Source: Eledone cirrhosa (Eukaryota). From it: 64,000 bases of DNA. Positions 18,521 to 60,642 of the stretch are shown in pieces. Each line of letters opens with the position of its first letter. Positions within the stretch are counted from its first letter, which is position 1. The stretch lies in NCBI GenBank assembly GCA_964016885.1, contig OZ024746.1:88288001-88352000 (forward strand). Direction: 5' to 3'. The notes under the pieces were generated by a model. It saw nothing but the letters and a program-made list of their open reading frames with translations, made no database searches and was not told where the DNA came from. Both the position numbers and the translations under genes were made by a program.

Positions 18521-18622
18521 TTAGAGAAATCGCCTCTACAGAACTATAACTGTTTTATTCGGGAGAAATCATGAGGAAGCCTGAATGACACTGTTCTAGT
18601 CCTGAAGAAACCATTTCTATAT
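18521..18622. repeat. Degenerate hairpin built from a hammerhead 3' half
   Basis: Imperfect palindrome of the same family as 60551-60642 (ga(c/a)ac.gttctagtcctg). Confidence 0.6.
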
Positions 18623-20109
18623 TAAATATTTATACTCTGCTATGTATTGTGCACCTTACTTACTGTGGTTACCTCCGATTGTACCCGGGATAATTGTATA
18701 TATATGTGTGCGTATGTGTGTGTGTATATGTGTGTGTGTGTGTGGGAGGGTATTTATGTATGGTTGCACATAACCGTTTTGAAAATTGGGATTATCACTC
18801 TCCATTTTCAAAGTATTAGTACCTTTCCAGACCACTCGCCTTCTGGTTCAAACAGGAGGCAAAATATTTCAGCCTAACATGGAAGGAGGTCTTCAAATCT
18901 AGTCTTGGAAAGAAGATTTCAATCTTGAACTCGTGCTATGAGCAGGCGCGAAACATCCAAGCAAGGACAGTACATGCACAGGAGGACTTTGGGGTTCAAC
19001 TGCTACCCGATATCAGATCGGCATATGTAGTTTTCGGGCAGAACATAATCCCACTAGCAGGTACTTCTATTGATTCCTTCTCTTGCAAGGGAGGTGCATC
19101 CTCGCGAGTCGGAGAGAATAATTTGCGTTCACAAAATATATTCGACTGAACAAGAAGTACATTCATGTACAAAGAAAGGGTAAACTCTTACAGGCTGACA
19201 TCTCTAGAATAATAAAATAGTTTAAATAACTCAAGGTCTCTGAATTTAAGTTAGAGATGCTAAATGTTTGAAGTTGCAACGGTGTTCTAGCTGAACCCTA
19301 TTACAGAGGAGATCAATGTCAAACCCAAATTCGGTTTTCGTGCCAACAGTTACTGACAAAGTACGTTCTCCAATGCAATAGTCCGAAATGATGTTCTCCT
19401 GAAGGATCTTTCTAGAAAATTTGCTCAATAACGTTTGAAACTCGGAGAAATGGAAGACAAATCACTTAATAATTCTTGCGGAACAGATTTAGATCTGTCC
19501 GGGTATCAAACGGCAGTTGCTCGAAATAGATTTGTTATTTTTATTTATTTATTACTTTAAATCGAAACAGGCACACCATATTGTCTTAAATTAGTATTTT
19601 TTCAATTTAGCTAACTTAGTCATTTGCAATTCGAACACATGTATCCCTGTATCGGTGTCCACCCATCTCTCATATTCAATTGTATTACACGGCTCGGAAA
19701 GATTCCCTTCCTTGAGCTAATTAATAGTAAAACACTATTTTGAGTTTTTAACTCAATCTATGATATTCTCGGCTCCATCCATACGTAGAGCTAACTTTAG
19801 TCTCATAAAACCGACTGCTATTTTTATCGGCATGAGTATGAGATGCGCTAGGCGCTGCATCATGTGCTTTTTTCTATTAACACATAATTCAGTCTTCTTA
19901 GATCTTTTGAAGTGAAAGGTACGAATTTCCTGGATACCCGCAGAAGAGAACAGGAATGGTGGCTTTCACTTAATAATTCTTGGGAAACTATATATATATA
20001 TATATATATATATATATATATATATATATATAGCGAGGGAAAAGTGGTAAGGAACCAAGTGGACCATAACGCACCAAAGTACTCAATACTTAGGGTAGTA
20101 GAGTGGGTA

Positions 20110-20225
20110 ATAGGAGTAAGTAAGACCCCGACGGCTGAGCTCAAGCCGTTTCGACGGCTAATTCAGTACAGAATTAACCGTCGAAACGGCTTGAGCTCAG
20201 CCGTCGGGGTCTTACTTACTCCTAT
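20110..20225. repeat. Near-perfect hairpin built from a hammerhead 3' half
   Basis: 55-bp arms with loop agtaca. Each strand reads helix II, GAAAC ggcttgagctcagcc GTC ggggtc. Confidence 0.9.
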
Positions 20226-20309
20226 ATATATATATATATATATATATATATATATATATATATATATATATAAATATATATATATATGAATATATTATAT
20301 ATATTTTCT

Positions 20310-21380
20310 CCTTCTAGGGTGGCTAAAATTCGCGAGATCCATGGACGAGTTCTCTCCAGCGGTCTCTGTCCCTCATTATCACTACTATGTCCTGCAACTC
20401 CAGCATACTAGTGTCTGTCCTTAGGGCATCAACATACATTAACCTTGGTCTTCCTCTTCCAGTTTGTCCATGTAGGGGCTCCCACATGTCAACTCTAGAT
20501 GTCGGTGAGCATGTCCAGCTAACCTCAGTCTCCACTGTGTCACTTTTGAGCTGACTTTTGGGAGGCTCCCATAGAGCTCTGAGTTTTTCATCCTCAGTGT
20601 ATTCTGATTAATGTTCAGCGCATCCTCAGCATTTCTTGTGTAGCACCCACCCACCATCTGAATGAGTTTCTTGGTCAATGTCCAAGTCACAGACCCGTAC
20701 AACGGCACAGACTCAAATACAGCAATGAAGAGGCAGAATGTCAGGCTTTTACGAAGATCCGACTTCCACACCGATCTCAAGCTGTGGCACGCCGCCCAGG
20801 CTTTGCTCTTCCTCTCAACCACATCATCTTCCGTATTCCCAATCTTTGTTCCCAAATACAGGAAGTCCTCAACCAATTCTAGCGCATTCCTGCCTACATT
20901 AGTGATCCCCTCTTGCTTCTCAACATTCTCTACCTGATATTTTGTTTTAGTCTCGTTTATTCTCAGCCGCACACTCATCGACACAGTCTCAACATCCTGC
21001 ATTAAATCCTCTGATTCCTTCACTGTATATGTCACCAAAACTATGTCATGTGCAAATTCAGCATCCTATATATGTTTCGCCTTAACTCTGGTGCTCTGAG
21101 CCAGTGCTACACTAAAGCCAGATTCCATTGTCTTTCTCCAGTGCAAGGCGCATACGCAATAGTCCACTACGATGATAACAAGTTAGGGAGCCAATTTTTC
21201 TCCCCGGAGCACTCCAGCCAGTATCTCAAAGAACTCTGTCATCCCATCAGGTGTAATGACTTGGGATTTGGTGTTGGTGTAGAGCAGTGATATCAGGTCC
21301 ACTATCTTCTTGGGGATTCCATAATCCTGTAAGATGTTTATTAGGCAGTGACGGTCCACAGAATCAAAGGCCTTCCTAAA
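20310..21380 (-). mobile_element. 5'-truncated RTE-type LINE (RT and thumb, frameshifted)
   Basis: FRKAFDSVDR, INETKTKY, LELVEDFLYLG, ESVPLYGSVTW, LRLAGH, RGRPRL..YVD and DRDRWRELV motifs. Confidence 0.85.
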
Positions 21381-22152
21381 GTGGAGGCGAACTAGATAGC
21401 GACCAACCTAAGGTTTAGGAATAATCCGAGGAAGATGTGGACCTACATCTCAGATATGAAAAGATATATGTATATATTTCCGTGTGAGTGTGTGTGCGGT
21501 GTGGACGAATTATAACTGCTAGAAACTACAATATCTCAATATGAGTTATAATTCAAATAATCTCTTAATATTTGTCATTCAATACACTCTAGCATGTATT
21601 CCGAAAGATACATATTTAATCTCTATAGTAATAGAGCTTACGTTTCGATGCACCTGTTTGCTTCTTGATATTCGCTTTATACACGACTGTACTTGTTTGT
21701 AAGTATGTATATATATATATATGTATACAAACAAGTACAGTCGTGTATGAAGTAAATATCAAGAAACACATACACACACACACACACACATATATATATA
21801 TATATACATACTTTCAAACAAGTACAGCCGGGTATAAAGCGGCTTCGAACGCATCCGATGACGTTGAGAAGTCCTCCTTTCCGGGTATTACTATGGATGC
21901 TCAGAGAGTGGGATTGGTCGAGTACAAGGCCTTTCCCAACTTTAAAAAAACCTTCAAAGGATAGGCATTGCTTGTTCAGGATCTATTACAAGCGATTGCA
22001 ATACTCTTAGCAGAGTTTGCAGCCATCATAATCTCTCTCTTCCTCTCTCTCTCTCGCTCTCTCTCTATATATCTCTCTCTCTTTCTCTCTCCCTCTCGCT
22101 ATCCCTCTCTCTCTCTGTATATATATATATATATATATATATATATATATAT

Positions 22153-58835: not shown

Positions 58836-58872
58836 TGTTTATATATATATAGCAGTAGGGTAGTAGGAAAAT

Positions 58873-58974
58873 GTTCAAGACCGCGACGGCAGAGTTGAAG
58901 CCGTTTCGTCGGCTATTTATGAATGCAAAAACAGCCGTGGAAACAGGTTGAGCTCTGCCGTCGTGATCTCGAGC
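58873..58974. repeat. Hairpin built from a hammerhead 3' half, related to 20110
   Basis: Minus strand reads GAAAC ggcttcaactctgcc GTC gcggtc. The axis is in the helix II loop. Confidence 0.8.
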
Positions 58975-59159
58975 CATATATATATATGTATGTACGTATA
59001 CATATTTATATATATATATATAATATATATAATATATATATATATATATAATATATATATATATATATATATATATATATATATATATATATATATATAT
59101 ATATATATATATATATATATATATATATATATATATATGTATATATACATACATTTACA

Positions 59160-60433
59160 TACATATATGTATACAGACGTACAGTAGTATGTATATGCAT
59201 GCATATGTGTACGTATGAGTTTATCGAACATTTATTATAATGCTCGGTTTGTTTGTAAACAAACAGCCCGAATTATTAGCCGTACTACAGTGTTCGGCAA
59301 CCATCATTGCCCTTTTGTTCAACACTGACAAAGGGACGATGAACTAGTGTCTAGCTTATTAGGTGTCATCAGCATCGTATACCTTCATGTCAGTCGATTG
59401 AACGTTTGAAAGTATATACTTTCCTAATGTATATTAACGGCTGAAGTGCCTAATTTGCATAATGAGTGACTTAGTCGGCCGGGTGTACCGAAAAAAATAA
59501 ATGAAAAAAAATGAAATTTCATTTCTCACTCATAGTACGGCTGATACTTAAATATATGAATGTATACGTACATACATATATACATACAGACGTACAGTAG
59601 TATGTATATAAATACGTACATGCACACATGCATATATGTACGTATGGGTTTACCGAACATTTATTATACAGCTCAGTTTCTTTGTAAACAAAAAGCCTGA
59701 ATGATTAGCCCTACATTGTTCGGCAATCATTGTTACCCTTTTGTTCAACACTGACAAAGGAACGATGAACTAGTTTCTAGCGTATTAGCCTTCATCAGCA
59801 CTGTATACCTTCTTGTCAGTCGATTGAACGTTTGAAAGTATATACGTTCTTTATGCATATTAACGGCTGAGCAGCCTAATTTGCATATCGAGTGACTTCG
59901 TCGGCCGGGTGTACCGAAAACGATAAATGGAAAAAATGAAATTTCATTTCTCACTCTTACTACGGCTGATACTTAAATATAAGTATGTATACGTATGTAC
60001 ATATATGTATACAGGCGTACAGTAGTATGTAAAAACATAATTACATTCATATATATATATATATATATATATATATATATATATATATATATGTACGTAT
60101 ATACTTTCAAACGTCCAATCGACTGACAGGAAGGTATACAGTGCCGATGACGGCTAATAAGCTAGAATCTAGTTCATCGTTCCTTTGTCAGGAACAAAAG
60201 GGCAACGATGGTTTCCGAGCACGGTACGCCTAATACTTCGGGCTGTTTGTTTACAAACAAAACGAACATTATAATAAATGTTCGGTAAACCCATACGTAC
60301 ATATATGTATGTCTGCATGTATGTATGTATATACTACTGTACGTCTGTATACATATATTATGTACATATACATATTTATATTTAAGTATGAGCCGTACTA
60401 AGAGTAAGAAATGATATTTCATTTTTTCCATTT
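59160..60433. mobile_element. Non-coding 426-bp tandem repeat with hammerheads plus an inverted third copy (retrozyme/pLTR-like)
   Basis: Minus-strand HHRs at 59336-59378 and 59762-59804, and a plus-strand one at 60138-60180. Same family as 44731-45120. Confidence 0.85.
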
Positions 60434-60550
60434 ACACAGACACATACACACACACACACACACACACACACACACACACACACACACACACACATACACA
60501 CACACACACACACACACACACACACACAAACCCACACATATTATATATAT

Positions 60551-60642
60551 AGATGATTATTCTACAGGACCAGAAATGTTTCATTCTCGAGAATGATGAT
60601 TTCTCTAGAATGAAACAGTTCTAGTCCTGTATAATCTCATCT
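60551..60642. repeat. Hairpin built from a hammerhead 3' half
   Basis: attctcgagaa-tgatgat-ttctctagaat GAAAC agttcta GTC ctgta, with (TA)n on both sides. Confidence 0.8.

Follow-up and report, generated by a model that had tools for sequence, protein, structure and literature searches.

Hairpins beside (TA)n tracts in the Eledone cirrhosa genome are head-to-head 3' ends of hammerhead-bearing Penelope-like elements

Hairpin insertions and their parent elements

The window analysed here, the whole stretch of 64,000 nucleotides at positions 88288001-88352000 of contig 6 of the 3.0-Gb Eledone cirrhosa genome, contains five hairpins that lie beside (TA)n and fold as long stems. These had been reported in a first-pass annotation of the window, and their positions were confirmed, as were their assignment to three families, A (20110, 58873), B (18521, 60551), and C (32621), and the succession of GAAA, helix III, and NUH of a hammerhead ribozyme on each arm. 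Compared to the coordinates given there, the units are larger and asymmetric, with a one-sided tail in 20032-20225, 18521-18697, and 32621-32738 (Table 1). We conclude that the five hairpins are truncated, dead, and abundant insertions of Penelope-like elements (PLEs) that target (TA)n, each consisting of 3' ends in head-to-head orientation. Their derivation from the pseudo-long terminal repeats (pLTRs) of hammerhead-bearing PLEs by reverse transcription into (TA)n, as originally proposed, is upheld.

The autonomous parent of family A was found at locus L252, which comprises a pLTR, a hammerhead, an open reading frame (ORF, 5079-7235, 719 aa from the ATG), and a second pLTR. A direct repeat (4414-4908 / 7532-8026, unit 3,118 bp) represents the pLTRs as a partial tandem. 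The ORF contains YRDD and GIY-YIG-like (VIY..YIG) motifs, matching the layout of a reverse transcriptase (RT) with a C-terminal GIY-YIG domain in endonuclease-positive (EN+) PLEs, and its atlas neighbours at 0.96-0.99 bear GIY-YIG, RVT_1, and HTH_animal; a Pfam scan of the ORF returned 0 families and a PDB search 0 matches. It also has a CxC..C..C motif ahead of GIY-YIG. An additional Zn-finger-like motif between RT and endonuclease is described for the Neptune and Nematis clades in the accessible part of PMC8557442. For families B and C, no ORF-bearing parent was found in the nine B and C loci scanned for an adjoining autonomous ORF. Other PLE-like ORFs are nested in (TA)n beside family A copies (L251:455-2596, L165-L167, L254:3793-5148), as is a fragment of a long interspersed nuclear element (LINE) at L252:988-2175.

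Predicted type I hammerheads are present in the pLTRs of all three families. The family A ribozyme has the U3-A8 variant core UUGANAA, a helix I of 4 bp, and a long helix II with a loop of 31-33 nt; its pattern has 1,451 exact matches in the genome. Because of this core and the long helix II, searches for a CUGANGA parent of family A failed, giving 0 matches in one case and 333 chance hits in another. The family B core is CUGAUGA, with the parental order CTGATGA-helix II-GAAA (L015), and nearly all parent-type rows of family C have CAGAAGA, a U4A variant. The commonest palindromic junction of family C restores CUGAAGA on one strand. Minimum-energy folding produced the hammerhead fold for the L252 parent alone; it was absent for L258, B, and C.

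To judge abundance, we used an unselected sample of 1.064 Mb (eight 100-kb blocks and 264 kb around the window), which contains 133 palindromes, 88 once simple repeats are removed. Hammerhead-like motifs, counted with a relaxed descriptor because a strict one matched nothing, number 104, compared to 5 in the reversed sequence. Genome-wide, family A short-spacer palindromes have 12,147 exact matches and the control 0, and a chance origin of these palindromes and of the hammerhead motifs is excluded. The sample includes 34 palindromes of families A (n = 15), B (n = 14), and C (n = 5), of which four in B and one in C were anchored by a single arm; extrapolation yields about 100,000 copies of the three families in the genome. 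Such hairpins are prone to mis-annotation as miniature inverted-repeat transposable elements (MITEs) or miRNA hairpins. Among the 150 listed of 194 matches in an Rfam scan, the hammerhead was absent and nearly all were miRNA models on simple repeats.

Table 1. Insertions and palindromes of Penelope-like elements in the window
Feature	Position	Strand	Remarks
Family A head-to-head insertion	20032..20225	-	Between (TA)n tracts; non-palindromic parent L252/L258; long arm 20032-20163, sense on -, with ~80-bp tail; short arm sense on +, ends 20225
Junction of 20032..20225	20164..20171	+	Family A 5' hotspot; putative transcription start at the A of initiator (Inr)-like TCAGT
Family A head-to-head insertion	58850..58975		Older and decayed; partial tail at left
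Family B insertion	18521..18697		Short arm 18521-18581 with decayed full hammerhead on -; long arm 18582-18697, its tail from ~18623
Family B insertion	60551..60642		Axis on TGATGA core (60594-60599); neither arm with detected tail
Family C insertion	32621..32738		Axis 32666-32676; partial tail 32721-32738
Family C asymmetric head-to-head junction	44457..44652	+	Truncated inverted short arm, then hammerhead (CAGAAGA, 44496-44502) and full tail
Family C tail-only junction	15876..16021	-	Short-ended sense arm 15876-15942 joined to inverted all-tail piece; arms without overlap
Family C 3' end with upstream parent pLTR sequence	56650..57073	-	CAGAAGA core at 56716-56722
Family C 3' end with upstream parent sequence	3422..3594	+	
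Family D palindrome	3761..3956		Axis on CTGATGA core; full hammerhead on + at 3857
Longer PLE palindrome	22150..22681		Full hammerhead at 22575; axis 159 nt upstream of C3
Family H palindrome	31530..32014		Minimal hammerhead at 31839; axis ~58 nt upstream

The 5' hotspot and its hammerhead neighbour

Within each family, the arms stop preferentially in a narrow interval. In the unselected sample, 31 of 44 family A arms end 12-27 nt before GAAA (+1 placed at 18) and 21 of 30 family B arms end 16-26 nt before it (+1 at 25), while 10 of the 23 family C arms stop at 21-28 (+1 at 25) and 9 keep parent sequence beyond 70 nt. The putative +1 corresponds to L252:4848 in A, the A of CCAGATTCC in B, and TTAGTTT in C. 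Plain family A copies, which lack the inverted arm, also begin at +1, as seen in 743 exact junctions between (TA)n and this base.

Several features suggest that the hotspot is likely the transcription start of the pLTR and thus the 5' end of the capped mRNA. A TATA-like box is found at -29 to -31 in the A, B, and E parents, with canonical TATAAAT in B and E; family E was examined after the idea had formed, and its approximately four junctions coincide with, or closely follow, a TCACT located 29-31 nt downstream of the TATA. In family H, the axis is located just ahead of a word that we take to be YY1-like. An extra G precedes +1 in 16 of 100 listed junctions, compared to none of 100 listed parents (both scored by eye; Fisher p 1.6e-5), and the cap is known from L1 work to be copied as an extra G. 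Furthermore, 7 of the 30 loci with post-tail sequence have a joint at which sequence from 5029-5806 is succeeded by a segment whose first base lies at 4844-4854 (+1 = 4848), and similar joints occur in contigs from a sequencing run. RT thus appears to have met an end at +1 and jumped back into a like RNA, which would accordingly extend into the ORF. At the family A hotspot we also observed T or A tracts of up to ~17 nt (L147, L242, L246, L250), suggesting reiterative copying at the template end, and a recurring GCGTCCAG that replaces AGTCCAG at +1 and perhaps reflects a misread modified base next to the cap.

Some observations weigh against a transcription start. The TATA-like word of family C is weak and located at -33/-34, no clear TATA accompanies the hotspot of family D, and one of 18 displayed parents (L382) has a G at -1. 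The start was also deduced from motifs, some of which (A, C) were picked after the hotspot had been seen. In addition, the hotspots of A, B, and C each include a YAG and are preceded by a pyrimidine tract, a combination that can also be read as a 3' splice site. Two-ended priming could then still be correct, with the hotspot representing a splice site or a position in the pLTR where RT pauses strongly. The T-tracts at some A junctions are consistent with this reading, and hammerhead helix I is the end point of the D. virilis Penelope intron (accessible part of PMC4209133) as well as of the B hotspot. Most A junctions keep the AG itself, however, and the reading accounts neither for the TATA position in three families nor for the extra G nor for the family E hotspot, which lacks an AG in its approximately four junctions. 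We consider it rather improbable.

If the hotspot is indeed the start site and integration follows the obligately two-ended scheme outlined below, PLE promoters could be located in any genome through hairpin axes, using DNA sequence only. Helix II of the family A hammerhead encloses both the TATA-like box and the putative start (L252:4806-4880), so that the 5' end of the mRNA would bear only half a ribozyme, and cleavage would be confined to the downstream pLTR.

A different rule had been proposed initially, with the symmetry axis in the loop of helix II and the CUGANGA half missing. As every palindrome ending in GAAA resembles helix II, this can be tested only against a parent. The rule holds for the hairpin at 32621, whose axis lies in the natural loop, and fails for the other four. 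The TGATGA at the axis of 60551 leaves helix II whole on that arm, and in 18521 the minus strand (18569-18581) retains the core, in decayed form, together with its 5' flank; helix II is likewise whole there. In 20110 and 58873 the core half is indeed missing, but the axis is on the 3' side of helix II, 15-16 nt before GAAA, compared to ~27 nt for the centre of the family A loop. Two intact family C parents had been named as anchors for the rule; the one at 56677 retains upstream parent sequence, whereas 44492 is itself a head-to-head junction with a CAGAAGA core.

The expected peak of axes at the helix II loop across families was not borne out either. Only 32621, one of the 34 A, B, and C palindromes in the sample, uses the natural loop as its turn. 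Of the palindromes from fetched loci, a set biased by the anchor base, 36 of 45 in B and 18 of 19 in C retain the core on one strand or both. In the 14 palindromes with a recognisable full ribozyme, the axes are spread between a point 2 nt inside the core and one 570 nt upstream of C3. Together with the rule, a mechanism was suggested in which RT halts once helix II has been copied and the cDNA uses this stem to prime itself; its products would necessarily retain the natural loop. For family A, such a product has 0 exact matches genome-wide, contradicting self-priming of this kind, compared to the 12,147 palindromes with short and varied junctions. The family A axes do fall within the span of helix II, and a helix II turn is also seen in L277 (one of 45 B palindromes) and L301, so that the mechanism may explain rare single copies; beyond these it is hardly credible. 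As a general rule, the helix II axis is refuted, and the hammerhead is a neighbour of the hotspot rather than its guide.

Long and short ends

Each family has two 3' ends that abut (TA)n, a short and a long one, which are located at 4908 and 4988 of L252 in family A. A long end is combined with a short one in 88 of 92 family A palindromes, and the other four are jump tandems whose outer ends are again long plus short. The same combination is present in 38 of 45 B palindromes, all 19 C palindromes, and all 10 kilobase-scale inverted insertions. Since palindromes are a known artefact of long reads, a fold-back in reads or assembly was considered as their source; its probability is negligible, as the ends obey this rule, the arms of old copies diverge by up to 25%, and contigs from a sequencing run show the same two ends at 4908 and 4988 (the ends, not the hairpin junctions).

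The most informative junctions are those in which the short arm is joined to an inverted piece consisting of tail only. There are four in A, four in C, including the one in the window at 15876-16021, and four in B that were picked by hand, as the B scan with its too strict anchor returned nothing. A cDNA cannot copy sequence that is absent from it, and these junctions therefore need a second cDNA. In L137, a single locus, the arms belong to two subfamily types, with mismatches at 5 of 15 positions compared to 0 of 30 in the core. At the asymmetric A junctions, the long-site cDNA is the truncated one in 13 of 13 cases, which is the pattern predicted for two primers located on a single RNA.

Based on these observations, we propose that two cDNAs are begun on opposite target strands and joined head to head at the likely transcript start. 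We estimate the probability of this full model at roughly 60%; the parentage of the hairpins, the fixed 5' hotspot of each family, the rule of one long and one short end, the tail-only junctions, and the variety of junctions are its observed part. Both strands of a cut (TA)n target would prime cDNA synthesis, using the distal (tail) start site on one strand and the proximal site on the other, and both cDNAs would run off the 5' end of the capped mRNA. Repair would then join the cDNA ends head to head using microhomologies of 1-4 nt, short templated insertions, or blunt ends, and an occasional jump of RT from the 5' end back into RNA would create a partial tandem. As the family A start sites are only 60 and 140 nt from the hotspot, run-off products would be short and should far outnumber full copies. 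More tentatively, and with somewhat less than even odds, PLE integration may be obligately two-ended and strong-stop-like, an asymmetric RT-endonuclease dimer priming both strands at two fixed mRNA sites, with run-off, end joining, and cap jumps yielding the hairpins, inverted pLTRs, the one-sided tail, and the partial tandems.

The main alternative to two cDNAs is a single one that runs off the RNA 5' end, snaps back via a few base pairs, and seals the break with a hairpin that is subsequently opened at the short site on either strand, a form of self-priming akin to that of Arkhipova 2013; in its accessible part, that paper (PMC3846280) reads junction palindromes as self-priming. Many junctions can be drawn as small snap-back stems, and common A and B junctions as stems of 2-4 bp with loops of 4-6 nt. 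Templated insertions at junctions fit as well, and private variants shared by both arms (L193, L208, L209) are what self-copying or conversion would give, although they would also be explained by two primers on one RNA. In contrast, snapping back can produce neither the tail-only inverted pieces nor the two subfamilies in the arms of L137, and it depends on precise nicking of either strand at the short site. It also agrees poorly with the junctions of a young family A subfamily. Among the 100 listed of its 477 junctions, scored by eye, perfect zero-loop ones are the commonest (32), imperfect loops lie on the long arm in 6 and on the short arm in 7, and short loops are divided 4 and 4. Zero-loop forms being commonest and loops facing either way about equally fit the annealing of two ends via a self-complementary 4-mer. 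Overall, we regard a snapped-back single cDNA as unlikely.

The variety of the junctions also bears on whether the hairpins were amplified as MITE-like units with identical ends, a question raised initially, or as SINE-like (short interspersed nuclear element) units from palindromic masters. The best 40 matches to 20110-20225 are 98-100% identical with fixed ends, but this set was ranked by identity. Junctions vary from copy to copy, the orientation of the loop with respect to the tail is not constant (19 to 10 in L001-L029, leaving out the second reading of L023), and each subfamily has its own non-palindromic parent. Unit amplification is thus very improbable, and a parvovirus-like flip-flop of a unit element was likewise dropped due to the junction diversity.

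Other data weigh against the two-cDNA model itself or limit its support. Thirty of the 92 family A loci were fetched with a pattern that required one long arm, and some fetched locus sets, including those of B and C, are biased by the anchor base. Seven of the 45 B palindromes lack a tail, 60551 being of this type. Moreover, 0 of 22 long ORF-bearing copies begin at +1, as 19 keep upstream pLTR sequence and 3 stop downstream, indicating that full-length copies come from another template. This is perhaps a read-through or circular RNA, as proposed by Cervera and De la Pena. The same count lends no support to another route to full-length copies that was considered, a retrovirus-like jump leading from the cap to the ribozyme-cleaved 3' end.

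At locus L263 (G000:C1:4182297), a family C arm that ends near the hammerhead cleavage site runs into a family A copy starting at +1, a single case of a possible jump between the RNAs of two families. Six tandem units of ~274 bp with family A post-tail sequence (G000:C3:214146619-214148018) may be retrozyme-like or result from repeated jumps. Elsewhere in the window, another hammerhead-bearing family forms tandem and inverted copies at 59114-60434 and 44664-45039 (cores at 59798 on the minus and 44753 on the plus strand), and nested inverted repeats surround a (CT)/(GA) tract at 49154-49969, with sequence resembling the family A tail. An inverted repeat of 600 bp (8147-8743 / 9441-10040, 98% identical) is related to 50784-51071, and a dispersed SINE-like repeat of ~190 bp is found at 5166-5395 and about ten further places.

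Comparison with known systems

The comparisons below refer to the accessible parts of the cited papers. Complex insertions of EN+ PLEs have an inverted 5'-truncated copy beside the element, a tail that is often one-ended, palindromes at junctions, (TA)n targets, and TATA/Inr-like words in the pLTRs (PMC3846280, PMC8557442). The insertions described here are alike in all of these respects, including the tail at one end next to an inverted copy, but their tail is longer (~75-80 bp vs. 30-40), and the product is mostly a hairpin of 100-200 bp with a fixed, family-specific junction hotspot. Both flanks consist of (TA)n, within which a target-site duplication would not be legible. Our data also favour two cDNAs on a sense template over the self-priming on an antisense template by which Arkhipova 2013 (PMC3846280) explains the junction palindromes. 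Unlike the internal TATA-less promoter of D. virilis Penelope, the candidate promoters contain TATA-type words.

Biochemical support for priming on both strands comes from the purified protein of the anole element Poseidon PAc, which nicks and extends both target strands from two RNA sites bounding the tail (Frangieh 2024, PMC11167929). The two systems share the cutting and extension of both strands, two internal RT start sites that bound the tail, AT-rich targets, and the dispensability of hammerhead cleavage for insertion. In the PAc study, the strands show no difference in start site and inverted copies are left unexplained, whereas our junctions imply that each strand uses a single site and that the 5' end at which run-off occurs is fixed.

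Twin priming of L1 similarly involves a second cDNA from the reciprocal target end, which is joined by classical non-homologous or microhomology-mediated end joining (c-NHEJ or MMEJ) with short deletions or duplications (PMC11702581). An inverted segment that the first cDNA cannot template is found in the tail-only junctions as well, including the one in the window. Annealing of the second primer in L1 relies on microhomology and takes place at variable sites near the end of the first cDNA. The PLE insertions, by contrast, have two fixed start sites, and their two cDNAs in most cases overlap over the full length, resulting in a palindrome.

Cervera and De la Pena 2014 (PMC4209133; see also bioRxiv 10.64898/2026.07.22.740005) reported that pLTRs contain type I hammerheads, among them the U3-A8 variant shared by family A, mostly as single truncated copies with some close pairs on opposite strands. 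Non-LTR retrozymes consist of tandem monomers, each with a complete type I hammerhead, in contrast to the hairpins, whose units are inverted and single and in many cases hold half a ribozyme. MITEs are fixed units with symmetric terminal repeats and call for a cognate DNA transposase, whereas the hairpins have asymmetric ends, many junction types, and a retroelement as parent.

Inverted-plus-tail PLE insertions were thus already known. A literature search, with subscription papers and supplements outside its range, retrieved no statement of a start-site hotspot, a helix II rule, or a one-site-per-strand rule, and the hotspot rule and the evidence for two cDNAs were not found in print. The origin of the tandem and inverted repeats and the tail of PLEs is named as an open question by Craig 2021 (PMC8557442, accessible part). 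With at least 12,147 independent junctions, family A offers a deep read-out of the PLE integration reaction, which favours two cDNAs over the published self-priming idea and provides sharp predictions for the existing in vitro system. The hairpins are neither a ribozyme-guided system nor MITEs, and their value lies in what their junctions reveal about PLE integration.

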